Assembly (NCBI GenBank): GCA_041640595.1
Contig: JBEPZY010000007.1
Span: forward strand, 85,611-149,610
DNA: 64,000 nt
Direction: 5' to 3'
Source of the DNA: Gemmatales bacterium
GTDB lineage: Bacteria; Planctomycetota; Planctomycetia; Gemmatales; HRBIN36
Part shown: positions 291 to 18,136 of the stretch, in pieces
How the letters are laid out: each line of letters begins with the position of its first letter
Numbering within the stretch: position 1 is the first letter of the stretch
Notes under the pieces: model-generated
Told to the model about the DNA's origin: nothing
What the model saw: the letters and a program-made list of their open reading frames with translations, nothing else
The model's database searches: none
Made by a program: the position numbers and the translations under genes

Positions 291-378
291 GCGGATATGT
301 TCGGCGTCCTCAGATGGCCAGTTGCCGCAGAAGCGGGATGGGCACGTACACGATTTGCCGATCATTATGACCGGCAGG

Positions 379-858: not shown

Positions 859-934
859 GTGTTGTTCCTCTAAGCAATGTCATTGTAGTTCGGAGACGAC
901 CATCTTGCTTGCCCAGGTATGAGGTTACGGTTCA

Positions 935-1125
935 GGTGGCCCGTGATCAGTCGGCCTTACAAGTGGTCAGTGGTCAGTGGCTGGTGGTCAGTTGCCGGAG
1001 AAGGATGTACGCGGCAATTCGTCGGCTCAGAAGTGGCCGGTGGTTAGTGGCTTTACAAGTGGTCAGTGGTCAGTGGCTGGTGGTCAGTTGCCGGAAAGTG
1101 ATTTGGCTGTGGTCGGTCGCCGGTG
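935..1125. repeat. Second array of the same heptamer family, including an exact 43-bp direct repeat
   Basis: ttacaagtggtcagtggtcagtggctggtggtcagttgccgga occurs at 957-999 and 1053-1095. Confidence 0.85.
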
Positions 1126-1410
1126 GTGCGACAGTTACTCGAGAAGTTCGGTATGCTCAGGCAGGGCGGAGATCGAGCAACGAAACCGATAGACCGTATC
1201 CGATTCCTCGGCGGGCCTCCCAAGACATAGCGGCAGAAGTTGTTGCATGGCATGCCCAATATCAGCTCAAGCATAGGCAATGTTTCCTGGCTCGCAAGAT
1301 TTAGTGGCGGAAGTTGCTCTATGCTATGTGCTTGAACCCGCATGCAAGTCTATTTTCAACATCAGCTACCCCAGCCTGAGTGTTTCCTATACACTCACGA
1401 ACCGCCCTTA

Positions 1411-2094: not shown

Positions 2095-2266
2095 CCCTTG
2101 CTCCTTCCTTGGCCAGGATGCTAACCTACCACGGTCCTGAGATCAATTGCAGTTATGCCTCCCCGCATACCCTGTTGTGAAAGCTGCCGCAATTTATGGG
2201 CAAGGCGGAGGCACTTCAACAACGCACCGCATCAACATGCATTTCCGTCGCCAAGTGGGGGCGAAA

Positions 2267-3415
2267 TTAGACAGTGGCCGTTTCGGTTACCGTTGGATTT
2301 TCCAGTGCCTCAGAGGCACGCCTGAGTTTTTGCGATACCTCGTAGCCCTGCGGTGTGGTGCTATATGCGAAATATCGTTCGATGCCGGACGGGTCGTTGG
2401 CCATGCCATGTGTGGTATGGGGGCGCGGTTGCCAGTGCAACTGGGCCAGAAGCTGCTGTAACTCAGGCAACAGCTGTTCAGCCCAGCGGCGAGCAATTTC
2501 CGCTTCCTGCGCGGTTAGATCAGGCGTCAGCGAGCGGGTTTCGCAAGGATATTCAGGAAATGCCTCGTACAGGTTGACGCTTCGCACTGCCGGAATGCCA
2601 AATAGTTCAGCGACCTTGGTGGCACAATTTTGCGGACACCCGTTCAGGGCGACTGTAGGAAAATCGCGGTAATAGTGCACATCTTCAGGCACTCCGGCAG
2701 CCAGAGCCGAAATGCAAAGCGGTTGCGACTTGCCCAGCAGCTTGTCCTGATCCTCGCACAGATGATAGGCAGTTCGCTGAGCGATACGGGCCCCGCTGCG
2801 CTTAATCCCCTGGCAAGGTAAAAGCGTCAAACCTTGGGCAGCAGGAGCAGTTTCCCCAGTCGCAGCAGGATCGGAGTTTTGAGCCTGCGCTGCTTGTGCC
2901 ACGCTGGTAGCGCAAGAATTGTCAGCGCTACCGGGGAAATGCTCATGGTCGGTCTGGACATGGTTCTGACACTGGCAGGCGAAGGGACATCCAGTTGGCA
3001 TTTGGCCGCTCGCAACATCCGTCGGCCAGGGGGCATCTGCAAGCACAAGCTGGAGTCGCTCAGCGACAGCCTCGGCGAGCTGTTTGCCTGAAGTTTCCAA
3101 TTCCTTACGTGTGCGGCCTGGCGTGAGGCGTTTTTCACGGATGATCCGCGATACTTCAACTTTCGCTGCTGGGGTCGCACCAATCAGTTTCATGACATGA
3201 CTGGCACAGCGTAAAACGCAGCCTTCAATGACCACTACCGGATGTTCCAGGGCTAAACGCCTCTCCTCTTCACTTCCAGCCAGCAGAGCCGGGATGGAAA
3301 GAATCTCCGTGTCTTCAGGGCAGGCGGCATGGGTCAGGTAAGCGGCTCGACGGGTCACGTTAGCAACGACCTTGCCAACTCCCATGCAGGGTGCCAGCAC
3401 TACTTTTTCGCTCAT
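2267..3415 (-). CDS. Protein with two tandem DGC-type (putative zinc-binding) domains
   Basis: Domain 1: PCMG...VVVIEGCVLRCA. Domain 2: PCQG...PLCISAL...VALNGCPQNCA. The start overlaps the gcvH-like stop (ATGA). Confidence 0.75.
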   Translation of the reverse strand: MSEKVVLAPCMGVGKVVANVTRRAAYLTHAACPEDTEILSIPALLAGSEEERRLALEHPVVVIEGCVLRCASHVMKLIGATPAAKVEVSRIIREKRLTPGRTRKELETSGKQLAEAVAERLQLVLADAPWPTDVASGQMPTGCPFACQCQNHVQTDHEHFPGSADNSCATSVAQAAQAQNSDPAATGETAPAAQGLTLLPCQGIKRSGARIAQRTAYHLCEDQDKLLGKSQPLCISALAAGVPEDVHYYRDFPTVALNGCPQNCATKVAELFGIPAVRSVNLYEAFPEYPCETRSLTPDLTAQEAEIARRWAEQLLPELQQLLAQLHWQPRPHTTHGMANDPSGIERYFAYSTTPQGYEVSQKLRRASEALENPTVTETATV

Positions 3416-3876
3416 CGGTTGATATCCCCTTTGATGGTGCGTTGCGTTTCTTCCCAGGTGGCCTCCAGGTATGCTTTATATTCCTCGCTGCTCCAGGTTT
3501 CACCCTGAGCTTCCGCCAGTTCGAATAGCCAACCCGTGCCGTAACCATCAAGGTTAATTGGCGAGGGGTCTTGCAACAATGCCTGATTGAATTGCACGAT
3601 ACGTCCGGCCATAGGTGCAAAGAGGTCCGCGGTGGCTTTGGAAGTTTCGATATGGCCAATCGGTTGCAAGTAGGTCACCGTGTCGCCGACGTTTACATAC
3701 CAGTCCAGGAAATACACGTCTTGCATGAGTCGAACGGCATAAGCAGTGAAACCAAAACGCCAGACCTCGCCCAGTCGCTGACACCACATGTGATTGCGAC
3801 AATAACGCCGATCGCCTGGCAACACGGCCGCGAATTTCCCCATCCAGAAGGTAACAGTGCCCGAATCCTGGCTCAT
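3412..3876 (-). CDS. Glycine cleavage H-like lipoyl-carrier protein (copy 1)
   Basis: DRRYCRNHMW, GFTAYA, IETSKATADLFAPMAG (lipoyl Lys position), PINLDGYGTGWLFE. Confidence 0.9.
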   Translation of the reverse strand: MSQDSGTVTFWMGKFAAVLPGDRRYCRNHMWCQRLGEVWRFGFTAYAVRLMQDVYFLDWYVNVGDTVTYLQPIGHIETSKATADLFAPMAGRIVQFNQALLQDPSPINLDGYGTGWLFELAEAQGETWSSEEYKAYLEATWEETQRTIKGDINR

Positions 3877-3946
3877 GGCTTATCGGTCATAGTATAAGCG
3901 AGGCTGAAAATTTAGTGGTAAACAGGGCGACTACTTCCCATGTTTG

Positions 3947-5293
3947 TCAGGTATAGCGAGACGTTCGGTGTTGCGGCAGGAAAAATACCGGCAAGAGCCG
4001 ATCTACTTGCAGCAAGCCACGCCGTGTCAGGACGATTTCTTTGTCATTGTAATCTAAATATCCTTCTGATTGCAGCCAGGCAAGTTCCTCTCCAAACCGG
4101 AGAGTTAAGTTCTCACCAAATTTATTGCGGAAATAATCAAGCGCAACATTCCCCGTTTTCAATTGCAGGATAAATTCGCGTATGCACAGCTCTAAGGGAG
4201 TGCACTGATAGGCTCGATAAAACGGCAAACGTCCTTCTTGTAAGGGGCCCAGGTAGCTATCCCACTCAGTCTGGTTTTGTACGTGTACGCCACCGATGTG
4301 CCCAAAGGATGCCACACCTGTGCCTACTAAGTCCGCTCCATGCCAGAGAGCATCGCGATATAAGAAACGCACTCGCTGTTTGTCACGCACTACCGTATAG
4401 GCACTGGAAATTTCATAGCCAGCTGTGATAAATTCGTTAAAAGCATAGTCCACCCAGGCACGTTTAGTCGGCCAATCGGCCAGGTTAAACGGCAGGGGCT
4501 GACCTGATCGGGCCGCTTTGGAATACTCTGTGTTATAAGGTAATTCCATCTGATAAATGGTAATGCTATCCGGTTGCAAAGCCAGTGCCTGCTGAACACA
4601 CGTACGCCAATTGTCCCACGTTTCACCCACCATTCCGGCAATCAGGTCTATATTAATTTGCGGGAAAGCAAGTTCTTTCGCCCAATGATAAGCACGAAAA
4701 ATTTCTGCAGCATGGTGGGCCCGCCCGTTCTCTTCCAGAATGGCATCATTGAAGTTCTCAACACCGATACTTAGTCGAGTAACACCGAGCTCGCGCAGGG
4801 CTTCCAGTTTCTGTTTTTGTAAAGTGCCTGGTTCGCATTCAAAAGTAACTTCCTGGATGTTATCCCAGGAGAAAAATCTTTTCAATTCGCCGAATAAATC
4901 CCGAAGCTGTCGCACACTTAGATAGGATGGCGTACCTCCACCAAAGTAAACAAAATCCAACGGCCGTCCCTGGAGTGCGGGTTTCCGGGAGTAAAGGTCT
5001 ATTTCTCTGAATAAACCTTCCAGATACTCTTCGATTTGACGGGCATTTTTATCCGTGTAAACGCGATAATAGCAAAACTTGCAGCGTTTGCGACAAAAGG
5101 GAATGTGTACATACAATCCCAGAGGGATCTCTTTTTTTGGAGTTTGCGATAGAGCGGTTTCAGCCGCGGGAATATAATCAGGTTTCCAGAGCGAAAAAGG
5201 AGGATAATTGGCGATAAAGTAATTACCGAGGCCGGTTTTCTCATCGGTGCTGGATAGGCTTAGCCGACTGGCAGTTGCCGATGTAGTGGTCAT
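3947..5293 (-). CDS. HemN/HemW-like (class C) radical SAM enzyme
   Basis: LYVHIPFCRKRCKFC, VYFGGGTPS, RLSIGVE and NIDLIAG motifs. ATG at 5293 sits 1 nt after the upstream TAA. Confidence 0.9.
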   Translation of the reverse strand: MTTTSATASRLSLSSTDEKTGLGNYFIANYPPFSLWKPDYIPAAETALSQTPKKEIPLGLYVHIPFCRKRCKFCYYRVYTDKNARQIEEYLEGLFREIDLYSRKPALQGRPLDFVYFGGGTPSYLSVRQLRDLFGELKRFFSWDNIQEVTFECEPGTLQKQKLEALRELGVTRLSIGVENFNDAILEENGRAHHAAEIFRAYHWAKELAFPQINIDLIAGMVGETWDNWRTCVQQALALQPDSITIYQMELPYNTEYSKAARSGQPLPFNLADWPTKRAWVDYAFNEFITAGYEISSAYTVVRDKQRVRFLYRDALWHGADLVGTGVASFGHIGGVHVQNQTEWDSYLGPLQEGRLPFYRAYQCTPLELCIREFILQLKTGNVALDYFRNKFGENLTLRFGEELAWLQSEGYLDYNDKEIVLTRRGLLQVDRLLPVFFLPQHRTSRYT

Positions 5294-5294
5294 G

Positions 5295-6386
5295 TTATTG
5301 TTCCGCTGTTTGGCCAAAGCAATAGAGCAGTCCGTCCTGCGTGCCGATCACAAGATGGCGGTCGGTGATGGCCGGCGAAGCAGTAATTGGTCCGCCTAAA
5401 GCTGCCGACCAGATCACCTTACCGCTGCCTAATTCTAGGCAATAAAGCTGGCCATCGGATGAGCCGACATAAACGTGGCTCCCAGCAATGACAGGTGAAC
5501 TATCTACTTTGCCGCGCGTTGGCGTTCGCCACCGTTGCTTACCCGTTTTAGCATCCAGAGCATAAACGGCTCGGTCGCGGCAACCGACTACCACCAGATC
5601 GCCGGACACCGCAGGGGAAGAGTAAAACGGAAACGGTCGTTCTGGTTCAAAACGCCAGACGACCTTTCCTCGTTTCCAATCCACGGCCAGCAGGGTTTTG
5701 TCCATGTTGCCCACATATAGAATATCGTTCAGCACGGCTGGGGAACCGCCAACCTGCGCCCCTAATTCTAAGCTTCTCGTTTCTTTACCGGTTGCTAAAT
5801 CCACCACGTGGAGGCGCGAATCGCAGCCCCCGAAGATAGCATGGTCATCGGCAATAGCAGCCGTTGCGTTGACTGGCCCTTCTGTAGCCAGCTTCCAAAT
5901 CAGTTTGCCAGTCTTGGCTTCCAGACAGTAAAAATTCTCATCGTAGGAGCCGACAAGGAGCCGACCTTTCCAGAAAGCCGCTCCTGCGATGATTTCCGCT
6001 TCCGTCTTGAATGTCCAAAGTTGCTTGCCACTAGCTGCTTCGACGGCGTGCAAAGTTCCACGCATATCGCCAACATAAATGATTCCATCTTGCCAGGCCG
6101 GTGGCGCCTTCAATTGCGAACCAGCATGGTATTTCCAGCGCTGTTTCCCCGTGGCTAATTCCAGGGCATATAGATGTTCGTCCATGCAGGAAACGTACAC
6201 AGTATCACGAACGATAACCGCGGCGGATTCGATACTGTCACCGAGCTGAACACGCCAGTATTGCTTCAACGGTGGGATTAAACCGTCCATGCGAAACGCA
6301 GTTTGTCGAAGGTCACCTCGCCAGGTTGGCCAGTCGGCCGCCAGTGCGGCAGTTGCGACTACAACTATCATCCCAACCAGGGCCAT
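5295..6386 (-). CDS. Secreted PQQ-like/BamB-family beta-propeller protein (start uncertain, 6386-6467)
   Basis: Signal peptide, then ADWPTWRGD, then repeated (A/C)L(D/E)xxTGKxxW blades. Confidence 0.9.
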   Translation of the reverse strand: MALVGMIVVVATAALAADWPTWRGDLRQTAFRMDGLIPPLKQYWRVQLGDSIESAAVIVRDTVYVSCMDEHLYALELATGKQRWKYHAGSQLKAPPAWQDGIIYVGDMRGTLHAVEAASGKQLWTFKTEAEIIAGAAFWKGRLLVGSYDENFYCLEAKTGKLIWKLATEGPVNATAAIADDHAIFGGCDSRLHVVDLATGKETRSLELGAQVGGSPAVLNDILYVGNMDKTLLAVDWKRGKVVWRFEPERPFPFYSSPAVSGDLVVVGCRDRAVYALDAKTGKQRWRTPTRGKVDSSPVIAGSHVYVGSSDGQLYCLELGSGKVIWSAALGGPITASPAITDRHLVIGTQDGLLYCFGQTAEQ

Positions 6387-6452
6387 TCCTGAAAGCCACA
6401 GCGGGCTCGGTCTCTTGCTTCCGGACCTCTCGACACCTAGAAAATAGTCGCC

Positions 6453-6908
6453 ATGGCTGGGCCGCATGATTTGCTTGCTCCCGGTGACATTCGCATTGCC
6501 ACTGACCGATGGTATCATCGAGACCATTATTGGATTTTATTCGATTCTCCACAGCCGGGCTATTGCCGCTTTGGTTTATCCGCTTATGTTTGTCGCCCAG
6601 GCATCGAGGTGTACTTCGTGGAAGATCTGGCTCTACCCGGACAGGAGATTGCGGAAGGCGACCTGCTCGGGGTCATCGAGACGGAGAAAGCGGTGGTTTC
6701 CCTATATAGTCCGATGCCCTGTCGTGTTCATGCGATCAATCAGGATGTCCTATGCGATCCCAATGCAATTAGTTTTGACAACTATGGGACATGGATATTA
6801 GAGGTACAAGCGGCCGGTTTCCCGAAGTTGCTTAGTCCGGAGGAATATCTGGCCTATTTGCAAACGTTACCGCCTCCTCAGTGTTTCACTAAATCGCCAG
6901 CATCTTAG
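6453..6908 (+). CDS. Glycine cleavage H-like lipoyl-carrier protein (copy 2), opposite strand to its neighbours
   Basis: DRWYHRDHYW, FGLSAY, VIETEKAVVSLYSP (Lys retained), DNYGTWILEV, LLSPEEY. Confidence 0.85.
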   Translation: MAGPHDLLAPGDIRIATDRWYHRDHYWILFDSPQPGYCRFGLSAYVCRPGIEVYFVEDLALPGQEIAEGDLLGVIETEKAVVSLYSPMPCRVHAINQDVLCDPNAISFDNYGTWILEVQAAGFPKLLSPEEYLAYLQTLPPPQCFTKSPAS

Positions 6909-6921
6909 TTCACGCGCATCA

Positions 6922-8094
6922 TTAGTAGGCGGACTGGTAGAGAGCCAGAAAGTCCTCAAAGATTACCGGCCGAGGATTAAATTTGCCCGTCCACTGCTGC
7001 GTGGCTTCTTCAGCTAGAACGGGCAGAATATCGCGATTGACACCCAGGTCACGCAGGGAGTCCGGCAAACCCGCATACTTTCGCAATGACTCTATACGTT
7101 GCGCAACTGCTTCTGCCGGGGAATCATGATACTCCAACCGCGCAACTTGAGCAAGTTCAAGATAAAGATTGTTCACAGCTGGGGCATTGAAACGAATAAC
7201 ATGTGGCAACATGAGCGAGACAGCCAGACCGTGAACGATGCCATAATGGGCGGTGAGTGGGTTGGCCAGGGCGTGAGCCGCTCCCAACATAGACATTTCA
7301 ATGGCTTGTCCGGCATAATGAGCACCAAGCTGCATCGCTGCTCGCGCTTCTAAGTCCTCTGGCGAGTCCAGCACCCGACAAAAATGGTGCTCTAATAAAC
7401 GCCACGCCTCACGGCTAAATAGCTGCGACCAGGGATTGCGCTTAGTGCAAACATAACTTTCGATGGCGTGAGCGATAGCGTCCAGGCCAGTGTCCGCCGT
7501 TACGTGTCGCGGTTGCGTGATAGTTACCACGGGGTCCAGGATAGCGATCCGAAAGGCCGCCTTTCGATCGCCGCAGGCCATTTTCATGTGCGTTTGCGGG
7601 TCGGCGATCAGGGCATACGATTGTGCTTCGCTTCCTGTTCCCGCGGTGGTAGGAATACCTATCGAAGGTAACATAGGCCTGGCGGCTTTCCCGTAACCCC
7701 GATAATCCTGCATACATCCGCCATTGGTGTAGAGGAAGTTAATGCCCTTGGCGCAATCCATAGCGCTCCCACCACCGACCGCGACAATACAATCCGGCTG
7801 GAAACGCTGGGCTATACTGGTGCCCGCTTCGACATGTCGCGTGGTCGGATTTTCTTCCACACCATCGAATACTTCCACGCATAAACCTGCCGCAACCAAC
7901 GAAGCAATGGCTTTCTGCGGATGACCGGCAGCTTCTAAGCCTGGATCGGTGACCAGAAGGACGCGATTTGCACCAAGTTCACGGGCTAATTCCCCCAGGC
8001 AAGCAATTGCTCCGGCGCCAAAAAAGACCCGCGTGTTAGGAACATAGTCGAACGAGGTAAGTAGCGGCAGCGTGGCTATAGTCTTATCGTACAT
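6922..8094 (-). CDS. Iron-containing alcohol dehydrogenase
   Basis: GGGSAMDCAK, PTTAGTGSE, DAIAHAIES and AAHALA...HG motifs. Confidence 0.95.
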   Translation of the reverse strand: MYDKTIATLPLLTSFDYVPNTRVFFGAGAIACLGELARELGANRVLLVTDPGLEAAGHPQKAIASLVAAGLCVEVFDGVEENPTTRHVEAGTSIAQRFQPDCIVAVGGGSAMDCAKGINFLYTNGGCMQDYRGYGKAARPMLPSIGIPTTAGTGSEAQSYALIADPQTHMKMACGDRKAAFRIAILDPVVTITQPRHVTADTGLDAIAHAIESYVCTKRNPWSQLFSREAWRLLEHHFCRVLDSPEDLEARAAMQLGAHYAGQAIEMSMLGAAHALANPLTAHYGIVHGLAVSLMLPHVIRFNAPAVNNLYLELAQVARLEYHDSPAEAVAQRIESLRKYAGLPDSLRDLGVNRDILPVLAEEATQQWTGKFNPRPVIFEDFLALYQSAY

Positions 8095-8116
8095 AAGCTC
8101 GCTCCAGGGCTGGGCA

Positions 8117-9550
8117 CTAAATGCGAATCCAGTCGCGGTCGAATTGAAAAGCCCTGGCCCGGAATAGGAAGTCCACGATGTTCCCCTCGTGGGGTTGTAG
8201 CCAGTTGAGCTTGATAGTCGGGATCGGACCGATGTTAAGACGGTCTATATGCACGGCGTCGGTAAGAGCCCGTTGAAACCTAGCGTCGGCAGTGATGGCA
8301 GTGCACACCAAAGTAGGCCCAATTTTTTCTAACATTTTTTCCTGGGGGCATTCGACAACGGTAACAAACGGGAACATGTATTCTTTCCTGGCGATGGCAA
8401 CTTCTGGTGAGGAGCAATAAATCACCATAGGCCGTAAGTAAGCACAACGTTCGCGCTTCACCAGACGTGGACCGAACCGGGCGGTCATATCCTCAACGCC
8501 AGGTTGGGCGAGATCGCGTTCGATGTCGGCGTATATAGCTTCTGCCTGACCAGGCACGGTAAAAGCAGCCAGTTGCGCCTGGGGATCATCTGGCGGCCTG
8601 GGCTCGATAGGGCCGAGACGTTCTGCGAGAGCCTCGGCGATCTTGCGTCCATGCCGCGACACCCAAATGCCGGAGCAGTTGATGCACCCGCGGCCGCTAT
8701 TGACGAGGACGCTATCCACCATGAGGTCCAGATATTTTTCCCATTCGTCCACCTTATCATCGCCAAACAGTATTTTACTGAAACCCGGGCCATGCACCTG
8801 CACTCGCGGATTGCCTTTATATTGTTCCACGGTCTGTGTGCTTCCAAAAATCAAGGTACGCGGACAAGAGTTTACCACGGCAGCGCCAACGTCGCCCAGG
8901 CCAGGATAAATTGCTATTGCCTGTTTTGGAACTCCGGCTTCGATAAAAGCCTGGGTCATACGATAGGGTGTCCACGGCTCCTGCGGGCCTGGCTTCAGTA
9001 CCAGACCAATCTGCAACGGAATAATCGGCAACCAGAGCGTGTGAACTCCGGGGGAGTTGCTTGGAAGAACCAGACCTAACACTGGCGACTGGCATTGATA
9101 ACTTATCGGGACGCCCCGGCTTTCCACACCATAGCCGCGCGACAAAATCTCTAAGTCCAGGCCACGGGTTAGCGAGTCTAAAATTTTATCCATATTAGTC
9201 AGGACAAAATGGTTTTTCTCCATATTGAAACGGCACATATGTTCGGGCATGCCGGTGGTAGCTGACTGCATGCGGACGAACTGCTCCGGTGTCTGTGTCC
9301 CATTTCCCAGCGGGAGTTCGGCACGGGTGTAAAGATCGGCTGCCTTACGAAGCATAGCCAACAAATCGCGGATGGGAATTTCGCGCAGCACTTCGCGTGC
9401 CCGGCGAGCGTGGCGCATATCACGTTCGACCAGCGCAGCATTAGCACGACTAACTTCCGCTAACACTTCGCCGGTCTCAAAATGCACAACTCGGTCAACT
9501 TCCATGCTGCGATAATGTTCTCCCCAACGCGATATTGGTATATGCAACAT
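8117..9550 (-). CDS. Aldehyde dehydrogenase-fold / acyl reductase (GriD/EhpG/LuxC-like)
   Basis: LPSNSPGVH, LKPG, HGPGFSK, NSGRGCINCS (candidate catalytic Cys), EYMFPF. It lacks the canonical ELGG motif and lies next to the EhpF-like gene. Confidence 0.8.
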   Translation of the reverse strand: MLHIPISRWGEHYRSMEVDRVVHFETGEVLAEVSRANAALVERDMRHARRAREVLREIPIRDLLAMLRKAADLYTRAELPLGNGTQTPEQFVRMQSATTGMPEHMCRFNMEKNHFVLTNMDKILDSLTRGLDLEILSRGYGVESRGVPISYQCQSPVLGLVLPSNSPGVHTLWLPIIPLQIGLVLKPGPQEPWTPYRMTQAFIEAGVPKQAIAIYPGLGDVGAAVVNSCPRTLIFGSTQTVEQYKGNPRVQVHGPGFSKILFGDDKVDEWEKYLDLMVDSVLVNSGRGCINCSGIWVSRHGRKIAEALAERLGPIEPRPPDDPQAQLAAFTVPGQAEAIYADIERDLAQPGVEDMTARFGPRLVKRERCAYLRPMVIYCSSPEVAIARKEYMFPFVTVVECPQEKMLEKIGPTLVCTAITADARFQRALTDAVHIDRLNIGPIPTIKLNWLQPHEGNIVDFLFRARAFQFDRDWIRI

Positions 9551-9611
9551 ATTAGATTCTCCCCTCTTGTTCGCTTTTGGTTCCTCAATTTGGTTCGCTA
9601 CCTATACACGA

Positions 9612-10739
9612 TTAGTACACACCCACGGTGGTAGTAGCAGCGAAACCGCGATAAGGCTTCACGCCACTCACACCATCCCACGGAAAGCGTTCACAGGGTA
9701 ATTCGCGTACACCTTCGTCGCGCTCAGGAAAGCGCGGCATAAAGAACTCTTTCGTCAAGGTGGTAAGCAGGACGCGGCCCTCCTGACCGTAATCCACGAC
9801 CCGATTATGATCGTCAAAATCTACCACCTCGATAACGGCACGAGGTTGTGGTGCGTAGTAGGTGATCTTATATCCGTCTTCCGGGCGAGGCATTTCGGAG
9901 ACAGCTAAACCCATCAGTGTATTTCCATAAGTCGGGGCGATATAGATACCAGGCCCGAGCAACTCTTCAATGGTAAAACGCATCCATTGCGGGGTCATTT
10001 CCGTTCCACCGCAGAAAATGCCGGTAATGCCAATTTCGCGCAGGCTCGTACCGCGTTTTTCCAGTTCAAGGGCGAGCGCTTCTAAAAGTTTCGGAGTCGC
10101 AAACATGCACTTAATATCGTGCCCCGCTTCCAGGATAGTGATGGCCTGCTCGATGCAATGTTCCATATAAGCCTTGGCCACATCCACCCATCCGCGTTTG
10201 AGGCACTTAACGACCCAGCGGGGATCAAGGTCTATACAAAAACAAATGCCTCCACGATACTGGCAGAGGTGTTCCACGGCCAGGCGCAAACGACGTGGCC
10301 CGGAAGGGCCTAACATCAGCCAATTAGCTCCTTTGGGGAAATACTGGTCGGGAAGCGTTGCGCTGAACTGTTCGTAATCAATGCGAAAGTCCTCGATATT
10401 GATGCGCGTTTTCGGGATGCCGGTCGTTCCGCCTGTTTCGAAAACGTAGATCGGGCGATTTTGGTAAGCTCGAGGTACCCAGCGGCGGACTGGCCCTCCC
10501 CGCAGCCATTCATCCTGGAAAAAGCCGAATTTTCTCAGGTCAGCAAAGCCGCGAATTTCTTTGCGGGGGTCAAAGTTTAGCTGTATATGCGGGTTAGTAC
10601 CGGCCAGGGCATCGAGCCAGAAAGGCGTTCCGGTTTCGGGACTGAAGTGCCACGCTACGATTTCGCGCACGTGAGCATCCAGGGCTGTGCGAGCTGCAGC
10701 GACACGTTCCTGGAGGGATGAAGCAAGTGCCGTGGTCAT
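9612..10739 (-). CDS. EhpF/GriC-like carboxylate-adenylating enzyme (LuxE-related)
   Basis: WHFSPETGTPFW, FETGGTTGIPK P-loop, IDLDPRWV, GGTEM, YGNT, ERD and C-terminal GVY; collinear with EhpF as I recall its sequence. Confidence 0.85.
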   Translation of the reverse strand: MTTALASSLQERVAAARTALDAHVREIVAWHFSPETGTPFWLDALAGTNPHIQLNFDPRKEIRGFADLRKFGFFQDEWLRGGPVRRWVPRAYQNRPIYVFETGGTTGIPKTRINIEDFRIDYEQFSATLPDQYFPKGANWLMLGPSGPRRLRLAVEHLCQYRGGICFCIDLDPRWVVKCLKRGWVDVAKAYMEHCIEQAITILEAGHDIKCMFATPKLLEALALELEKRGTSLREIGITGIFCGGTEMTPQWMRFTIEELLGPGIYIAPTYGNTLMGLAVSEMPRPEDGYKITYYAPQPRAVIEVVDFDDHNRVVDYGQEGRVLLTTLTKEFFMPRFPERDEGVRELPCERFPWDGVSGVKPYRGFAATTTVGVY

Positions 10740-10771
10740 GGTTAACGAAAGCTCCTGGAGTCAGCGGGAGG

Positions 10772-12418
10772 TTATTTAGTTTCCGCAATGGCGTAGAGAT
10801 TCTGGCGGGTCATGACATAGAGCACACCGTTGACCGCGATGGGCGTGCTCAGCACTGGGGCTTCCATTTCGTTTTTCGCTAGCAGTCGCAATTTTTTACC
10901 GTGCTCAAAAACATAGACGGTTCCTTCATCCGTGCCAATATAGACCTTGCCATCCACGACGTAAGGTGAACCCCAGATAGCGGAGAGGGTGTCGTACTCC
11001 CAGTATTTTTCACCGGTGCGGGCGTCGAAACAGGCAACAAAGCCGCTCAGGTTGGCGATATAACAAAGCCCATCGTGAATCGCACAGGTGGAAAGGCCAC
11101 GTCGCCAAAGCAATTTACCATCTTTATCTTGACCCCCGACGTGCCAGACCAGGCCGGAATTCTTATTCTCCGGAGCCTTCGGGTCAAAATTATCGTTCAC
11201 TGGCGAAAGGTCTATATTGGTCGGGCTGGCTTTACTGGGATCTATGCACCAGAGGTGACCGACGCCTTCACCATGTTCGGGGTCCTGGCCAACCTGAATA
11301 TAGACGCGACCTTCATAGACAACAGGAGTGGCGATGATTTCGTTTTTAGTTCCGCGACCCCCTAGGATATATTTCGAGTTCTTCGGATTGCAATCGAACT
11401 TCCAGAGCAGCTTACCGGTACGAGGTTCAAAAGCATATAGCCAACCGTCGCCGCCCGGGAAAATGACCTGCGGCTGGCCATTAATTTCGGCATAACAGGG
11501 ATTCGACCACTGGCCGTGCAGGATTTTGTCGCCGGGCAAATTGCTTTCCCATAGAACTTTGCCCGTAAACTTGTTTACTGCCAGGAAACTCGGAGCACGG
11601 GGAGCGGGAATGTTCTCATGCGATTCGTCATGGCCGTTGCCAGTAACAACGTAAACAATATCGCCGACTACCAGCGGGGAGCAGACCGCCAGGTTATGAG
11701 GAAAAACGCCTAACTCTTCCATCATATCCAGTCGCCAGATGATGTCGGCGTCGCTTTCGTCCTTATACTTCTCGTCTTGCACACCGTCGTTCTTACCATC
11801 GTGGAATCCTTCCGTGTCCGCGCAAACCAGTTCACATCGGTTACTCACGTAATAAACGCGATTATCCTCGACATAGGGAGAGGAGCAGATTCCCTGTTCC
11901 GGCCAATCGTTGACGCGGCCGGAGGGCAGCTTATCGTGAACCGCTTGCCAGAGGAACTGGCCGTCCGATTCGCGGAAGCAGATGAGAATGCCCTTATCCA
12001 CGGGAATAAGCTCATCTCCTTTTTTGACGGCATCGCGGGGATTGCGCAGGCCACCGTTATTAGTACCTAAAAAGATTTTGCCACCGTAAACCACCGGATT
12101 GCCATACGATTGAGAACCGAGCTTAGCGACCCACTTGATGTTTTTGGGAGGGATTTTCCGTTTGGGGTCGCCAATGTGCCACTCGGCGGGAAGACTTTTC
12201 TCCACGGTGTTGACCATATTGCGGAAGGGCGTGCCGCCAAACATGCGCCAGACCCTGAGCGGCACGTTGCTGATGTCCACCTTTGGCACCTGAGCCGCCG
12301 CTCGCGGGGAGAATGCCGAGGGCTGTTGAGTAGTTTGCGAAAACCAGCCGAGCAATAATAGAAAGCCGGCCGACAACAGTGCCAGTAGCCAGCGATAGCC
12401 AGAAGCTTTTGGCCGCAT
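10772..12418 (-). CDS. Secreted PQQ-like beta-propeller protein
   Basis: Signal/TM segment, WRMFGGTPFRN, IKWVAKLGSQSYGNPVV and repeated TGKxxW blades. Confidence 0.88.
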   Translation of the reverse strand: MRPKASGYRWLLALLSAGFLLLLGWFSQTTQQPSAFSPRAAAQVPKVDISNVPLRVWRMFGGTPFRNMVNTVEKSLPAEWHIGDPKRKIPPKNIKWVAKLGSQSYGNPVVYGGKIFLGTNNGGLRNPRDAVKKGDELIPVDKGILICFRESDGQFLWQAVHDKLPSGRVNDWPEQGICSSPYVEDNRVYYVSNRCELVCADTEGFHDGKNDGVQDEKYKDESDADIIWRLDMMEELGVFPHNLAVCSPLVVGDIVYVVTGNGHDESHENIPAPRAPSFLAVNKFTGKVLWESNLPGDKILHGQWSNPCYAEINGQPQVIFPGGDGWLYAFEPRTGKLLWKFDCNPKNSKYILGGRGTKNEIIATPVVYEGRVYIQVGQDPEHGEGVGHLWCIDPSKASPTNIDLSPVNDNFDPKAPENKNSGLVWHVGGQDKDGKLLWRRGLSTCAIHDGLCYIANLSGFVACFDARTGEKYWEYDTLSAIWGSPYVVDGKVYIGTDEGTVYVFEHGKKLRLLAKNEMEAPVLSTPIAVNGVLYVMTRQNLYAIAETK

Positions 12419-12446
12419 AGGTGTCCGGTCCTCCTTGGCGTCTCGG

Positions 12447-14753
12447 TTATGGATTGGGATATATTTTTACGTTGTCGAAGTACGCTTCAGCGCCGGGGGA
12501 AGTCGCGGTAATGCCCGTGGCGTAGGCGTAAAGACCGGCTGCCCCTTCGGTATTGGGAATCGGGTCTTCGGCGGTGATGGTCCACTCCCTGGGTTCGGGC
12601 TGCTCACGTGGCCAGACTTTGCCCAGAAGAATGCCTTTACCGTTGACCACGCGCACGCACAGTTTGAAGCGGTACCAGACGTTGGGTTGCCAGGGAAAAT
12701 CCACCTTTTGATTGATACGACCCGGAACGGCATCCGGAGGAGCGTCTTCGGGCCGGCGCGCTTCCCAGGTTCGTAAAAGCAGCCGTTGTTTGTTACCGTC
12801 CAGCGTCAGGCTATAGCGACAATTCACCACACCCATATCAGGAAGGTTGCGGCGACGTTCGGTTGCCATGAGATCGGCTTCGATAGTGTAGTTCTGAACA
12901 TGCGGCGTCGTTATAAAAGCAATAGCGCGGGCCAGAAGCGGATTCGGGTTGTTAGCCAGTTTTTTGAGCACCTTGTTCTGCGGATTGGTAGGATCGGTGG
13001 CGACGAGGAATTTTCCGGAGACGTTGACCCATCCCCCTGGCACAGCACCTTCCGGCATAGCGTCGAAAGTTTGCACGAGCGGGATACGAGGGGCAACCCG
13101 CACACGTGCCCGTGCGGTCAGTTGACCGAAGCGAGCCTGAACATAGCCTTGCTGGGCGGGAATGTTCGGATCGGCGCGGAACAGACCTGATTGTAAAGTT
13201 CCTCGCAGTGGTGGCGGTGCTGGCGCGGGTTTCCCCTCCGGAGTCGTTGGCGGTGCCTGGGGAGCCGGTAGCGTCCATTCTTCGGGTTCCACTTCGCGCA
13301 GGAACTGGCCGCGAGCATTGTACACGCGAGCGGTGAACTTTACCTGGCCGCCTGGTTCCAGCACCACATCTGCAGGAATCAGTTGCAGCCAGCTGGCTGG
13401 CTCATCCGGACTTACCTTCGGTTCTTGCGGTGGCAACGGTACCTTGCCTTCACGGCTTTCCTTTGTGGCCAGGCAGTACAAGGCATCGCCGGTGGTGAAA
13501 TATAAACGTCCTTTCCAAACGGCTGGCGTACCGTTGTTTTCAATCACTTCCCCATGCGGGCCGAGCGGGTTGGTAAACGTGTGAATCGTTTTGCAACTGC
13601 GGTCATCAGGCTGCAGGATGTGGAACTTTCCGGCGACTTCCATGATATAAATCCTGCCATCGGCCCACACAGGCGAACCACGGGCCATGGTGCCGTACTT
13701 ATGTTCCCACAAAGTTTCTCCGGTCAGTGCGTCAAGGCAATGCAGCTTAGCGGAATTGTCGGCGACGTAGAGACGGTTGTCGAATAACGCAGGGGACGCC
13801 AAACCCGCCAGGATGCCCAGTCGTCGCCACAGCAGTTTCGGCCTGCCGTTGCTGACCTGAGAAGCATCCAGACAGTAAACGCCTCCCATCTCGTTGGTGT
13901 CGAGGTTTTCATCGCCGTGGGTGATATAGACGCGGGAACCGGTAACCACCGGGGACGGATTGACACCACGTTTCGAGAACGGGAAACTCCAGACCGGCTT
14001 GCCAGTACGGGACTGCAGGGCGTGTAACGCACCATCCGCGCCGCCGCAAATGACCAACCGTTCGCCGTTGATGATCGCCACGACCGGGACAGAATACAGG
14101 GTGTCCAGGGGTTGGCCACCAGGTTCGGACCACCAGAGGACCTTGCCGGTCCGTTTGTCGAATGCAACAAAACGATGGCCACCGCGACCCTGGTCGCCCC
14201 AGCTGGCGTTCAGGAAATGGAGAATCACTCGGTCTTCGTCCACAATGGGCGTGGTAACGCGGCCACCATAACCAGAGATGCGGCCAAACTCTTCCGTCAA
14301 TGAGCGCGACCAGACAACTTTGCCGTCCGGAGAAAGACAGAAGAGCAAACCCTGAATGCCGTGCGCGTAAACATAACCGGTCTCTTCGTCGGCGGCCAGA
14401 TTTGCCCAGCCAACTCGGTTCGTAACGATGTCCGTATGGAAAATGTTGAAGCGGTACTCCCAGAGTAACTTGCCCGTGTCGGCGTCAAAGCACATGACCC
14501 GTTCCTGTTCGCGAATATTGCCGGGTTCTGCTCCGTTGATGATGTAAACGCGACCCTGGCAGACAACCGGAGTGGAGCGGCCACCGTAGGGCTGTTTCCA
14601 GAGCAAGTTGAGTCCCGATGGCGACCAGGCTGTGGGCAAGCCGGTATCGCGGGATGCACCATTCTGTTCCGGCCCGCGCCAATGCACCCAATCTACACTC
14701 CATGCGGGGATCAACAACGCACCCAACGTCAGCATCACAGCCAGATAGCGCAT
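12447..14753 (-). CDS. Secreted PQQ-like beta-propeller protein with a C-terminal lectin/DUF1080-like beta-sandwich
   Basis: DWVHWRGPEQNG, TGKxxW blades, and C-terminal WYRFKL...KVWPREQPEP...AYFDNVKI. Confidence 0.88.
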   Translation of the reverse strand: MRYLAVMLTLGALLIPAWSVDWVHWRGPEQNGASRDTGLPTAWSPSGLNLLWKQPYGGRSTPVVCQGRVYIINGAEPGNIREQERVMCFDADTGKLLWEYRFNIFHTDIVTNRVGWANLAADEETGYVYAHGIQGLLFCLSPDGKVVWSRSLTEEFGRISGYGGRVTTPIVDEDRVILHFLNASWGDQGRGGHRFVAFDKRTGKVLWWSEPGGQPLDTLYSVPVVAIINGERLVICGGADGALHALQSRTGKPVWSFPFSKRGVNPSPVVTGSRVYITHGDENLDTNEMGGVYCLDASQVSNGRPKLLWRRLGILAGLASPALFDNRLYVADNSAKLHCLDALTGETLWEHKYGTMARGSPVWADGRIYIMEVAGKFHILQPDDRSCKTIHTFTNPLGPHGEVIENNGTPAVWKGRLYFTTGDALYCLATKESREGKVPLPPQEPKVSPDEPASWLQLIPADVVLEPGGQVKFTARVYNARGQFLREVEPEEWTLPAPQAPPTTPEGKPAPAPPPLRGTLQSGLFRADPNIPAQQGYVQARFGQLTARARVRVAPRIPLVQTFDAMPEGAVPGGWVNVSGKFLVATDPTNPQNKVLKKLANNPNPLLARAIAFITTPHVQNYTIEADLMATERRRNLPDMGVVNCRYSLTLDGNKQRLLLRTWEARRPEDAPPDAVPGRINQKVDFPWQPNVWYRFKLCVRVVNGKGILLGKVWPREQPEPREWTITAEDPIPNTEGAAGLYAYATGITATSPGAEAYFDNVKIYPNP

Positions 14754-14887
14754 GCCCGATTCTCCTGGGGAAAGAGGATTCGCCTACGGGGATGGATGTC
14801 TCCGAAGTTACTTTATGTCGGCGGGTGGCTGGCGGAAACCAGCCCGGTTGTGGGAGTATATTAGTATAGCCGGACGGAATCAGTCAG

Positions 14888-16204
14888 CTAGATTTGCTTA
14901 CGCCAGCGGCGGGCTTTCAGTTCGTGGCGGGGCAAACTCCCAACAGGAACGATAGCGATTCTGGGCTTGATGAGAAAAGTTGCCTGTACTTCCTTGCAGA
15001 TACGCTCGGCCAGTTGCTGGCGATCTTCCGGAGAGTCCATACAGCGTGCTTCGGCAGGCTCGATTTCCAACAGCAGTTCGCTCAGTTCGCCTTGAGCGCT
15101 TACGGTCACCCGATATTCGCCGACTTCGGCAAATTTTCTCAGGACATCATCCAGAGCAGCGGGATAAATCTTGGCGCCACGGACAGCCACCAGGTCGTCC
15201 TGGCGGCCAAGAATTCCTCCTTTCAGCCGCAGCCAGATACGGCCGCACGGGCATGGTTCCGGATCAGCAATCACGCGATCACCGGTGCGATAGCGAATAA
15301 GGGGACTGCCCCAGCGGCCGAGGTTGGTCAGAACCAGTTCCCCTTCCACTCCCGCAGGCACGCGGCAGCCAGTTTCGGGATCGATTACTTCGGGGATGCA
15401 TTCGGTCTCCAGCAGATGAACACCGAGAGGATTCTCGGGACATTCGATTCCCAGTGGGCCGATTTCCGTCATACCTGTGTGATCGAAAACGCGGGCCTGC
15501 CAGCCTTGTTCAATGCGTTGGCGAACGTGCGGCCAGCTACCGCCTGGCTCCCCAGCCACAATGAGCATACGCACCGCACTATCTGCCAGGTCAATTCCTT
15601 CCCTGCGGGCGACTTCAAGCAAATGCAACGCATAGGTGGGTGTGCAAAAAACCACGCTGATGCCGTGATCCAGAACAGCCCGCACACGGGCGAGGGTGTT
15701 CATACCGCCTCCCGGGAGCATAAACCATCCGCACCGACTTGCAGCATCCCAGGCAGCCCAGAAACCAAGAAAAGGGCCAAACGAAAACGGGAAAAAGAGG
15801 CGGTCGCTGGCTCGCAAACCGACGATAGCAAATATCCGTTGCCAGCACTGCAATATCCATTGCCAGCTTTCAGGAGTGTCGAGCCAGCGAAGTGGCTGAG
15901 CGGTCGAGCCAGAAGTTTGGTGCAGTCGCACATAACGCGCCAGGGGATAGGTCAGGTTCGTGCCATAGGGCGGTGCAGTTTGCTGGTCGGCGAGTAACTC
16001 CTGCTTCGTAGTAAAGGGCCAGCTCGCCAGGTCTTCCAGCGAACGCGGCAACGCGCACGAACCAAGCTTGCGGCGATAGAAGGCGTTACGCGATAAGACC
16101 TCGGTCAGCATCGCACGCAGTTTTTGCAACTGCACCGCCTGGAGTGCTTCCCGGTCTGTTTCGCATCGGCCTAGTCGCATCGGTTGTTCCATGCCCAATT
16201 TCAA
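14888..16204 (-). CDS. Phenylacetate-CoA ligase (PaaK) family adenylate-forming enzyme
   Basis: FTTKQEL, HQTSGST, AGEPGG, GMTEIG, PLIRYRTGD and GRQDD motifs. Confidence 0.9.
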   Translation of the reverse strand: MKLGMEQPMRLGRCETDREALQAVQLQKLRAMLTEVLSRNAFYRRKLGSCALPRSLEDLASWPFTTKQELLADQQTAPPYGTNLTYPLARYVRLHQTSGSTAQPLRWLDTPESWQWILQCWQRIFAIVGLRASDRLFFPFSFGPFLGFWAAWDAASRCGWFMLPGGGMNTLARVRAVLDHGISVVFCTPTYALHLLEVARREGIDLADSAVRMLIVAGEPGGSWPHVRQRIEQGWQARVFDHTGMTEIGPLGIECPENPLGVHLLETECIPEVIDPETGCRVPAGVEGELVLTNLGRWGSPLIRYRTGDRVIADPEPCPCGRIWLRLKGGILGRQDDLVAVRGAKIYPAALDDVLRKFAEVGEYRVTVSAQGELSELLLEIEPAEARCMDSPEDRQQLAERICKEVQATFLIKPRIAIVPVGSLPRHELKARRWRKQI

Positions 16205-17188
16205 GATTCCCCGGCTCCAAAATCAAAGCCCCTCTATGGCAAGGTTATGACGAGAACTCGTTCCTCGGCCAGCGGTCAGGCAAATTCTCCCGCCCCTGTC
16301 CTCCGAAACCTTTACTTCCTGCTCGTTCGATGGGCTGTAATTACCCGCACTCATATCGAGTGGCGCTTCGTCTTAACCGCTTTCCGGCCTGATACCGGGC
16401 ACCGAGCCAGTGGCTGAAACTGAACTGGCAGCTTCGTCTCCACCGCTCGCCAGTGGTGGTACTGGTATCCGGTCTGGCGGTTTTGGATACCTGACCGTTT
16501 TGGTCGGGAACCGGTTACCGTCCGACAATTTTGCACCCTGGCTGTTCAACGTGCCTGCAGGAAATGGGCGAGGCTGCGACCGAGTTGCTGGCCTAAGCGT
16601 TCATACCCGGCAATCGTACTGTGCGCTGTGTTCCGCGGAGTTTTGAGGGTAACTGCGAATACCGAAGAACCGCGATTCAGCGCGACTATGACGCCCTTAT
16701 TTCCTGGTTGGATCGTGCTTGCGGAGGGAAGCGGGGCTGGCGAAGGGGAACGGTTCGGCGCGAACCATTTTTTCGCAAGGGCACGCCGGTCCAGAAAATA
16801 ACCTTAGCCACTTTCGACCGGGCGAAGGATAAGCCGCCAGGGTGGACGATGCGCTGGCGTAAACGAAGCAGAAACCAGGACTGAATTTGTGGAGCTCGTG
16901 GTGTCAGAACCCAGGCCGGCGGAACCAAGACGGGACTGATTATCCGCATCGCCACAATCATGCAGGTGAATAAAGACAGAGAACGGCCCAGTTTGACGGA
17001 GCCGACGGATACGTTGCCGATCGGCTGTCGAACACAGCAAACAACTATGCTGACATTATCGCCGGGAGAGTTAGCCGAAACTCACCGATGCTGGTGTTCG
17101 CACGAGCTGGCCATCCAGGTAACGCAAGCCGAGATACGAGAGCAACTGCCCAAATTTTTCGTGCCTGGGCCGTTTGCGGATCTGGTGT

Positions 17189-18046: not shown

Positions 18047-18136
18047 CGTTGCTTGTCTCCCGACACCAACGCTTCGTTGTAAGCCGGCACAAATCCATCC
18101 TGCCACAGCCCATCGTGCTGGCACCGGGCACGACGG

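Follow-up and report, generated by a model that had tools for sequence, protein, structure and literature searches.

A widely conserved, uncharacterised gene system of Planctomycetota and other phyla joins an EhpF-like carboxylate reductase pair with a HemN-like radical SAM enzyme, a halogenase-like protein and propellers

Introduction

Two-protein aryl carboxylate reductases that depend on ATP and NAD(P)H are known from EhpF/EhpG of Pantoea agglomerans (D-alanylgriseoluteic acid) and GriC/GriD of Streptomyces griseus (grixazone). A pair of this type lies within a run of eleven genes at positions 2267–16204 of the DNA studied here, a stretch of 64,000 nt from a Gemmatales bacterium (GCA_041640595.1, contig JBEPZY010000007.1, 85,611–149,610 of the forward strand), the whole of which is called the window below. 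The run had been described as a biosynthetic-looking cluster in an original prediction made from the window alone. It is a real, widely conserved and uncharacterised pathway composed of known kinds of enzymes in a new combination, and its eleven genes are the local part of a conserved system of ~15 genes that is found in at least four bacterial phyla, as judged by contig labels.

The likeness to EhpF/EhpG and GriC/GriD resides in an adenylating protein of ~370 aa, devoid of the ANL C-terminal subdomain, that stands beside a protein with an aldehyde dehydrogenase (ALDH) fold in which the cysteine is retained. However, the two described pairs come from strain-level antibiotic clusters, whereas the pair discussed here is core to whole classes in several phyla, is trailed by an iron-type alcohol dehydrogenase (Fe-ADH) and is co-inherited with a radical S-adenosylmethionine (SAM) enzyme, a halogenase and propeller proteins that are predicted to be exported.

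The radical SAM enzyme has its described relatives in HemN/CgdH, HemW, NocN and ChuW/HutW, with which it shares the Radical_SAM and HemN_C domains as well as CxxxCxxC and GGGTP motifs, and its similarity to HemN (1olt) and NocN (9p2u) is full-length. Unlike HemN, HemW and NocN, it is paired in Planctomycetia with a GcvH-like protein and a protein with two [4Fe-4S] motifs, a partnership unique to it in this comparison. The two GcvH-like proteins of the locus, GcvH-1 and GcvH-2, carry the GCV_H fold and the lipoyl-lysine motif of the H proteins of glycine cleavage and lipoyl relay; yet, in contrast to the H protein of glycine cleavage, neither is encoded beside gcvT or gcvP, and GcvH-1 is fixed behind the radical SAM gene.

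Two further routes share enzyme logic with the system. The engineered gastrodin route combines UbiC, a carboxylic acid reductase, an alcohol dehydrogenase and a glycosyltransferase; white-rot fungi, in their chlorinated anisyl alcohol cycle, employ a halogenated benzyl alcohol outside the cell. Both are analogies only, as radical SAM enzymes, lipoyl proteins and propellers are absent from the two of them. Among planctomycetes themselves, Planctomycetales strain 10988 makes 3,5-dibromo-p-anisic acid, for which a preprint proposes the adjacent chorismate-lyase-like BaaA and halogenase-like BaaB as source, a two-gene pathway put forward there without genetics and with the methyltransferase not located (bioRxiv 10.1101/723874). 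Adjacent chorismate-lyase-like and flavin halogenase-like genes also follow the radical SAM gene in the fuller clusters of the present system, a match of architecture only. The preprint treats the strain 10988 pathway as one of two genes, whereas here the pair is embedded in a ~15-gene system and, in the genome under study, the UbiC-like gene and a pair formed by the halogenase and a GT4 glycosyltransferase lie outside the window, on two contigs. Full-text searches for combinations of the parts found no paper that describes the whole system, the strain 10988 preprint being the only one that touches on it. The original prediction that no described pathway has this composition is therefore supported for the whole by the literature searched, while two genes of the wider system already have a published, unvalidated assignment as BaaA/BaaB.

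A co-inherited gene system in several phyla

Co-occurrence was followed in a sample of 301 Planctomycetota genomes, orthologues being accepted at E 1e-100 (EhpF-like protein), 1e-60 (radical SAM enzyme), 1e-70 (propeller prop768) and 1e-85 (halogenase) or better, and the UbiC-like protein being counted by profile. Orthologues of the EhpF-like protein, the radical SAM enzyme and prop768 occur in exactly the same 57 of the 301 genomes, which spread across many families; the inclusion of the propellers in the system, part of the original prediction, is thereby corroborated. The halogenase is present in 56 of these 57 cluster genomes and in none of the 244 others, with weaker, paralogue-level matches in 8 other genomes and in the 57th cluster genome (G107). 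Likewise, the UbiC-like profile matches 43 genomes, every one of them among the 57. In one family (f3; 15/15 genomes) the system is present even though its genes lie megabases apart on the chromosome, so that linkage alone cannot account for the co-occurrence. Within the order of the genome under study, the EhpF-like gene was found in 40 of 41 genomes.

Gene order is conserved as well. Of 40 loci with an EhpF homologue that were fetched within the order and the phylum, 35 hold an orthologue; the ALDH-fold gene follows downstream on the same strand in 31 of these and Fe-ADH after it in 27, and the propeller gene prop548 lies just upstream of EhpF in 23, its orthologues there being 40–87% identical and recurring in loci labelled Terriglobia and Poribacteria. 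Orthologues of the PaaK-like ligase (44–72% identity) flank the cluster in most loci. The fullest order, seen in distant loci, runs prop768, prop548, DUF3311, the sodium:solute symporter SSF, EhpF, ALDH, Fe-ADH and prop410, and continues with radical SAM, UbiC-like, halogenase, GT4, thioesterase, membrane protein and PaaK.

A scan across phyla, with one genome per species, returned at least 594 stretches that encode relatives of the radical SAM enzyme. Among the best 80 of these, which were examined, 17 contigs are labelled as lying outside Planctomycetota (Terriglobia, Blastocatellia, Thermoanaerobaculia, other Acidobacteriota, Verrucomicrobiota and Poribacteria), with radical SAM enzymes that are 53–57% identical. 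Contigs with the labels Terriglobia, Blastocatellia, Verrucomicrobiales and Poribacteria repeat the gene order. A Terriglobia locus, for instance, reads prop768, prop548, EhpF, Fe-ADH, prop410 and radical SAM, followed by halogenase, DUF3311, SSF, GT4, thioesterase and ABC. The genes are hence both syntenic and co-inherited far beyond this genome, where the original prediction had been open to refutation.

Two side observations concern the same families. Other planctomycete families have EhpF-like paralogues with 30–39% identity, and one genome carries such a paralogue as its second copy (loci L043–L046 and L023); none of the cluster genes is near them. In addition, single in-frame stops interrupt otherwise full-length matches of the radical SAM enzyme in G026 and G043, and of the UbiC-like protein in G213, G230, G251, G295, G325 and G338; they may reflect broken copies, errors of sequencing or matches that read through stops lying upstream.

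The carboxylate reduction genes

The EhpF-like enzyme matches EhpF in the PDB (3l2k, 3hgu; phmmer E 1e-39) with query residues 21–364 on chain residues 21–354 and, in its length and in lacking the ANL C-terminal subdomain, fits an adenylating subunit of the EhpF/GriC type. In its ALDH-fold partner, Cys289 aligns with the catalytic cysteine motif of KauB, and His253 occupies the position of the general-base glutamate ('LEAGGKS' in KauB). This is the pattern of ALDH folds like those of EhpG, GriD and LuxC, which keep the catalytic cysteine and can dispense with the general-base glutamate. The third enzyme, Fe-ADH, reaches no NCBIfam equivalog, its best score being 299 bits with ErcA (cut-off 550). 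Taken by their sequences, an EhpF-like protein, an ALDH fold that retains its cysteine and lacks the glutamate, and an Fe-ADH would fit the route from acid via aldehyde to alcohol that the original prediction had envisaged. The PaaK-like ligase scores 201–213 bits with the NCBIfam PaaK models, which have cut-offs of 646–700.

The radical SAM enzyme and its lipoyl and ferredoxin-like neighbours

None of the curated NCBIfam family cut-offs is reached by the radical SAM enzyme, which scores 180.7 bits with hemN TIGR00538 (cut-off 324.95, match limited to residues 53–257), 169.2 bits with HemW TIGR00539 (cut-off 205.4) and 175 bits with HutW (cut-off 400). In the PDB it matches HemN at E 1e-40 (1olt) and the class C methyltransferase NocN at E 1.3e-33 over residues 47–258 (9p2u). 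HemN/CgdH proteins have the motif CxxxCxxCxC with a fourth cysteine; here, the sequence CRKRCKFCYY contains CxxxCxxC and no fourth cysteine. A true HemW is encoded on another contig of the genome (C3; 310.2 bits), which together with the scores agrees with the earlier view that the cluster enzyme is not a heme enzyme.

The situation is similar for the lipoyl proteins. With TIGR00527 and NF002270 (cut-offs 116 and 117), GcvH-1 attains 69 and 83 bits and GcvH-2 41 and 52 bits, and a true gcvT-gcvH-gcvPA operon is found on contig C12. Because these scores stay below the cut-offs and a genuine HemW and gcv operon exist elsewhere in the genome, the radical SAM enzyme and the GcvH proteins of the cluster are dedicated paralogues. 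The column of Lys80, the lipoyl-lysine, is invariant across GcvH-1, GcvH-2 and the true GcvH.

GcvH-1 was found in 28 of the 41 genomes of the order. In 26 of these 28, it shares its strand with the radical SAM gene and lies no more than ~1 kb downstream of it, a pairing that is kept in eight genomes where the two genes are far from the EhpF block. Of the best 80 radical SAM loci, 75 have room downstream, and in 37 of these the next gene is GcvH-1; upstream, prop410 is the neighbour in 37 of the 71 that have room there. All 37 loci with GcvH-1 have labels of the Planctomycetota type or unspecific ones, and none of the 17 loci whose labels name other phyla has GcvH-1 in this position. Next after GcvH-1, 27 of the 37 loci encode a conserved protein of 350 aa with two [4Fe-4S] motifs (Fer4), and four loci are ordered radical SAM, GcvH-1, Fer4, UbiC-like. 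From these positions across the radical SAM loci, GcvH-1 and Fer4 belong inside the cluster in its Planctomycetia version.

Of the other two genes in this part of the locus, the one for a tandem DGC protein was found in only the 4 same-genus genomes among 41 searched, where it always abuts GcvH-1; it sits where Fer4 stands in other Planctomycetia, the Fer4 gene having moved to contig C8 in the genome under study. The DGC protein and the 350-aa Fer4 protein have no similarity in BLASTP, the PDB offered nothing useful for the former, and the literature on the DGC domain yielded unrelated papers on diguanylate cyclases and zinc alone. Orthologues of GcvH-2 (64–72% identity) exist in three same-genus genomes and were not found in two other members of the family that were searched; in the 40 fetched loci GcvH-2 occurs at one (L029). 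Thus, where the original prediction had counted lipoyl carriers and DGC as parts of the cluster, GcvH-1 is a conserved part, while GcvH-2 and tandem DGC were found in this genus only.

The radical step may be a C-methylation or an oxidative reaction of the HemN type; no motif that tells methylases from oxidases of the HemN type is known to us. The lipoyl and ferredoxin-like proteins behind the radical SAM gene suggest a dedicated electron relay, which, as a matter of speculation, might be no less fitting for an oxidative step of the HemN type than for methylation. A complex prediction for the radical SAM enzyme and GcvH-1, made with two alignments, scored 0.00; it gives no verdict and bears neither way. 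No paper that links HemN-like enzymes with GcvH was found in the literature.

As an aside, Fer4 is followed in several Gemmatales (L058, L059, L062 and L065) by a second radical SAM gene of ~395 aa and then by a squalene-hopene-cyclase-like gene, after which L059 has a polyprenyl synthase fused to DUF116 (coordinates L059 8914–13755 and L065 4330–7328). These genes on the Fer4 side look like a terpenoid-type block that abuts the cluster.

System members outside the window

As a description of the whole pathway, the eleven genes of the original prediction turn out to be incomplete: the window has only about two thirds of the system, six further genes of which lie on other contigs of the genome. 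In distant loci, the radical SAM gene is followed by genes for a protein of ~190 aa, a CmlS-like halogenase, GT4, a hotdog thioesterase (4HBT/YbgC-type) and a small membrane protein. In this genome, the gene for the ~190-aa protein, which is UbiC-like, lies on contig C6 and the halogenase–GT4 pair on C3, and the thioesterase, the small membrane protein and the ferredoxin-like Fer4 gene are on C8. An SSF symporter and its DUF3311 subunit are encoded between prop548 and EhpF in many distant loci; this genome has no close SSF orthologue and weak matches alone, on contig C5.

The UbiC-like protein (190 aa) has the fold of DUF98/chorismate lyase according to its structural model, which has a predicted local distance difference test (pLDDT) score of 88. 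The model matches the DUF98 structure 2nwi with a TM of 0.63–0.77, as does the family profile (E 5e-6), and E. coli UbiC (1fw9, 1jd3, 1g1b) with a TMq of 0.54–0.58 at 15–17% identity. For the halogenase, CmlS is the best family (209 bits, cut-off 900). True flavin halogenases are marked by GxGxxG, WxWxIP and a conserved lysine; GGGPAG, GWFWYIP and K123 are invariant in all five aligned orthologues.

It may be added that the thioesterase and Fer4 genes on C8 (L066, 62000–81999) have as neighbours an HPPK-SDR fusion, an MfnB-like 4-HFC-P synthase, a GHMP kinase and a CobA-HemD fusion.

The propeller proteins

Judging by eye from N-terminal basic and hydrophobic segments, all three propellers are probably exported. 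The largest, prop768, combines a BamB/PQQ-type propeller at residues ~20–430 with an Ig-like and a concanavalin-like jelly-roll domain at residues 430–768 (12450–13466). Its PDB matches are BamB and tetrathionate hydrolase. The model of its C-terminal part has a pLDDT of 90.5 and retrieves jelly-rolls of lectins, carbohydrate-binding modules (CBM) and PL-14 in Foldseek, with a TMt of 0.71 to the CBM66 structure 4b1m. In prop548, short stretches of repeats match PQQ-dependent alcohol dehydrogenase (PQQ-ADH) and BamB in the PDB.

The third propeller, prop410, scores 296 bits with Pfam Beta-prop_ACSF4 and so exceeds the cut-off of 133; this is the propeller of the animal beta-alanine-activating enzyme, where it is fused to an adenylation domain. 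The match might be a trace of an ancient connection between propellers of this type and adenylating enzymes. Neither the BamB model TIGR03300 (180 bits with prop410, 65 and 60 with the others; cut-off 285) nor the PQQ-ADH model TIGR03075 (109, 37 and 51 bits; cut-off 480) is reached by any of the three, and their PQQ-ADH matches in the PDB span repeats of ~50 residues alone. The propellers may bind or display the product, as the original prediction supposed.

A proposed pathway and its alternatives

Gene content and order, co-inheritance, the family or fold of each protein and the extra-paralogue status of the radical SAM and GcvH proteins are observations, and on them a pathway can be sketched that we hold with about as much confidence as doubt. 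In it, a hydroxybenzoate-type acid derived from chorismate would be made, halogenated, tailored by a radical reaction, reduced to the aldehyde and the alcohol and passed, possibly after glycosylation, to the three probably exported propellers. The DUF98/UbiC-fold protein would make 4-hydroxybenzoate from chorismate, or, in some lineages, the SSF symporter with its DUF3311 subunit might import the acid instead. The CmlS-like flavin halogenase would then halogenate the ring, and the HemN-like enzyme would carry out its radical step, be it a methylation or an oxidative reaction; in Planctomycetia, GcvH-1 and the two-[4Fe-4S] protein may serve it as redox relay, with DGC in the place of Fer4 in this genus. 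Next, the EhpF-like enzyme is predicted to adenylate the acid and to hand the acyl group to Cys289 of the ALDH-fold partner as a thioester, from which NAD(P)H would release the aldehyde, and Fe-ADH would yield a benzyl-type alcohol. GT4, the PaaK-like ligase, the hotdog thioesterase and the small membrane protein are candidates for conjugation and export of the product, and the three propellers, one with its lectin-like domain, would bind it or act on it outside the cytoplasm.

Expression of the cluster can be approached via RNA libraries. Contigs from four hot-spring metatranscriptome libraries (four studies) map to it, mostly at 95–99+% identity. Those of run X15 cover 30 of 30 bins, one of them (record 8) also covering the 984-nt spacer at the PaaK end of the cluster, and runs X16–X18 leave some bins without cover. 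The EhpF/prop548 junction is bridged by contigs in X15, X16 and X17, and X15 contigs also bridge DGC/GcvH-1/radical SAM/prop410, ALDH/EhpF, prop548/prop768 and prop768/PaaK. These contigs are compatible with expression and no proof of it.

Several points weigh against the proposed pathway. It is assigned as a whole from genes, so that each product, substrate and activity in it is a prediction. The substrate of this EhpF clade could be aliphatic. The UbiC-like gene was found neither in 14 of the 57 cluster genomes nor in 8 loci labelled Acidobacteriota, and hence the hydroxybenzoate origin is not universal or the acid is imported; moreover, six members of the UbiC-like family retrieved no related Pfam family at E up to 10 and no NCBIfam match, and we know of no established activity for DUF98 proteins. 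The propellers are closer to BamB, which has no cofactor, than to any enzyme. As for the counts, the genomes share kinship and do not represent independent events, and contigs from the RNA libraries may stem in part from DNA and do not demonstrate one continuous transcript. Finally, the tie between BaaA/BaaB and this system is so far one of gene-pair architecture.

That the acid might be imported leads to a different reading of the same genes, namely uptake followed by catabolism or salvage: a carboxylate from the environment would be captured or released by exported proteins of the propeller and lectin kind, SSF/DUF3311 would import it and EhpF/ALDH together with Fe-ADH would convert it inside the cell, the halogenase-like and radical SAM enzymes modifying the imported compound and building nothing new. 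The presence of SSF and DUF3311 inside the cluster in many loci, the exported look of the propellers and the cluster genomes and Acidobacteriota-labelled loci in which the UbiC-like gene was not found are all in line with this. However, spending ATP and NAD(P)H on turning an acid into an alcohol would be unusual in catabolism, the genome under study lacks a close SSF orthologue and yet keeps the rest of the system, and the intact halogenase motifs, GT4 and the chorismate-lyase fold point to synthesis, which leaves this reading unlikely, if worth keeping in mind. An aliphatic substrate, in turn, would suit an envelope lipid, for which EhpF/ALDH would act on a fatty acid as LuxE/LuxC do; GT4 would glycosylate the resulting fatty aldehyde and alcohol, which would be moved to the outer membrane, the site of BamB-like propellers, and the aromatic genes would be a co-travelling side branch. 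The pair does have the LuxE/LuxC architecture, one neighbouring ALDH cluster in Atlas has Pfam LuxC in 12% of its members, genes for GT4 and a LolD/MacB-like ABC ATPase stand at the end of the cluster in several phyla, and BamB is what the propellers resemble most. We nevertheless consider a lipid product quite unlikely, given that the adenylating enzyme resembles EhpF (E 1e-39) and was recognised by no Lux family model, that the halogenase is co-inherited (56/57) and all 43 genomes with the chorismate-lyase fold fall within the 57, and that the cluster contains no acyl carrier, acyltransferase or fatty-acid gene.

A further reading is a shuttle, in which a halogenated hydroxy- or methoxy-benzyl alcohol made from chorismate would be exported and oxidised or consumed by the propeller and lectin proteins at the surface; the acid would come back via SSF and be regenerated to the alcohol by the two-protein reductase and Fe-ADH, and in Planctomycetia the lipoyl and two-[4Fe-4S] proteins would form an electron relay for the radical SAM enzyme. 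To our knowledge, such a relay partnership has been described for no radical SAM enzyme. A shuttle would give roles to importer, exporter, reductase pair, alcohol dehydrogenase and exported proteins together, and a halogenated anisic acid is known from planctomycete culture according to the strain 10988 preprint; but no redox cofactor site is evident in the propellers, this genome is without the SSF gene, and GT4, PaaK and the thioesterase are left without a role, making a shuttle very unlikely. Least credible of all, and largely refuted by the HemW gene on C3 and the distribution of mch, is a housekeeping function, with the radical SAM enzyme as HemN or HemW or with the cluster serving the adjoining tetrahydromethanopterin/methanofuran genes. 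HemN is indeed the best PDB match of the enzyme, mch and an MptN-like gene lie 3–5 kb away, and the thioesterase and Fer4 genes on C8 stand among MfnB-like and HPPK genes. Yet the enzyme stays below the HemN and HemW cut-offs and has no fourth cysteine after CxxxCxxC, and a true HemW of 310 bits is encoded on C3. The link to tetrahydromethanopterin/methanofuran was rejected because mch, found in 25 of the 301 sampled genomes, is present in just 25 of the 57 cluster genomes; furthermore, there are phyla with the cluster in which no C1-cofactor genes adjoin it at the loci fetched. Set against these alternatives, the synthesis of a tailored, reduced aromatic compound destined for the propellers is the reading that we prefer.

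Gene map and genomic neighbourhood

The coordinates of the eleven genes are given in Table 1. Calls of open reading frames (ORFs) bear out the original map of ten minus-strand genes and one inverted gene (GcvH-2, on the plus strand), and its domain names agree with the Pfam, NCBIfam and PDB searches, Pfam returning two DGC and two GCV_H matches as well as PQQ_2/BamB-type repeats in the three propellers.

Table 1. Genes of the cluster and their positions in the window
Gene or product	Position	Strand	Length and domain or structure matches
PaaK-like aryl/acyl-CoA (or ester-forming) ligase	14888–16204	-	438 aa; Pfam AMP-binding + AMP-binding_C_2
prop768 propeller, predicted exported	12447–14753	-	768 aa; Pfam PQQ_2
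prop548 propeller, predicted exported	10772–12418	-	548 aa; Pfam PQQ_2
EhpF/GriC-type stand-alone adenylating enzyme (putative)	9612–10739	-	375 aa; PDB EhpF match
ALDH-fold reductase partner (EhpG/GriD-like)	8117–9550	-	477 aa; Pfam Aldedh 79.8 bits
Iron-type alcohol dehydrogenase (Fe-ADH)	6922–8094	-	390 aa; Pfam Fe-ADH + ADH_Fe_C
GcvH-2, inverted lipoyl-protein paralogue	6453–6908	+	Pfam GCV_H 41 bits
prop410 propeller, predicted exported	5295–6527	-	410 aa; Pfam Beta-prop_ACSF4 + PQQ_2
HemN-like (class C type) radical SAM enzyme	3947–5317	-	456 aa; Pfam Radical_SAM + HemN_C
GcvH-1, lipoyl-protein paralogue	3412–3876	-	Pfam GCV_H 68 bits
Tandem DGC-domain, cysteine-rich protein	2267–3415	-	Pfam DGC, two stretches

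Gaps within the minus-strand run include 28, 32, 61 (between EhpF and ALDH) and 22 nt, and the end of GcvH-1 overlaps the start of DGC by 4 nt, all as predicted. A further predicted gap of 1 nt holds only if the radical SAM gene starts at ATG 5293, since its longest ORF, from TTG 5317, overlaps the prop410 gene by 23 nt. The PaaK-like gene is separated from prop768 by 134 nt and the radical SAM gene from GcvH-1 by 70 nt, and the 5′ ends of GcvH-2 and of the longest prop410 ORF overlap by 75 nt.

Both flanks are unrelated to the cluster. Downstream, ispF and a non-conserved membrane protein are encoded, ispF being one of the housekeeping genes that surround it; upstream follow a 984-nt spacer, ilvE, a LolD-like ABC ATPase and tetrahydromethanopterin genes. 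The spacer between ilvE and the PaaK-like gene (16205–17188) has no convincing ORF, and blastn found no match to it in the 40 fetched loci, including the same-genus locus, or elsewhere in the genome. A scan of 1–20000 with Rfam gave no match at E up to 1, and no known riboswitch therefore hints at a ligand. In 1000–17500, promoters and terminators were counted at the level of shuffled sequence (14 vs 11.4 and 19 vs 18.4).

Beyond the spacer, the class IV aminotransferase at 17189–18124 scores 457 bits with a branched-chain aminotransferase model (cut-off 363), and because it passes this cut-off the idea of a PabC-like chorismate enzyme was rejected. At 18137–19123, two genes upstream of the cluster, a LolD/MacB-like ABC ATPase is encoded. 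Where loci carry the labels Terriglobia, Thermoanaerobaculia, Acidobacteriota and Verrucomicrobiales, and likewise at two planctomycete loci, the cluster closes with ABC ATPase genes that are 39–46% identical to this one, but paralogues within the genome are equally similar (41–43%), which makes it a mere candidate for an orthologue of the genes at the cluster end. On the plus strand, 19485–22767 holds mch (TIGR03120, 366 bits), an MptN-like ATP-grasp ligase gene that scores below its cut-off and a weak CitG-like gene. Close homologues are labelled Gemmatales or Gemmataceae, and hot-spring metagenomes hold near-identical DNA.

Outlook

With its occurrence in at least 594 stretches under four or more phylum labels and with radical SAM enzymes that are 53–57% identical across them, the system almost certainly makes a product that is important to these bacteria. 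It brings chemistry of the kind otherwise met in strain-specific antibiotics, i.e. a split carboxylate reductase, a flavin halogenase and a radical SAM enzyme of the class C type, together with probably exported propellers. Were the shuttle of an aryl alcohol true, bacteria would possess an equivalent of the chlorinated anisyl alcohol cycle known from white-rot fungi. Solving the system would give functions to thousands of 'hypothetical' genes and would probably bring to light a new aromatic compound, be it a metabolite or a surface conjugate, that is widespread among bacteria of soil, freshwater and hot springs and may be halogenated. It would also set the halogenated planctomycete product described in the strain 10988 preprint in its genetic context and possibly add a new redox partner system for radical SAM enzymes.

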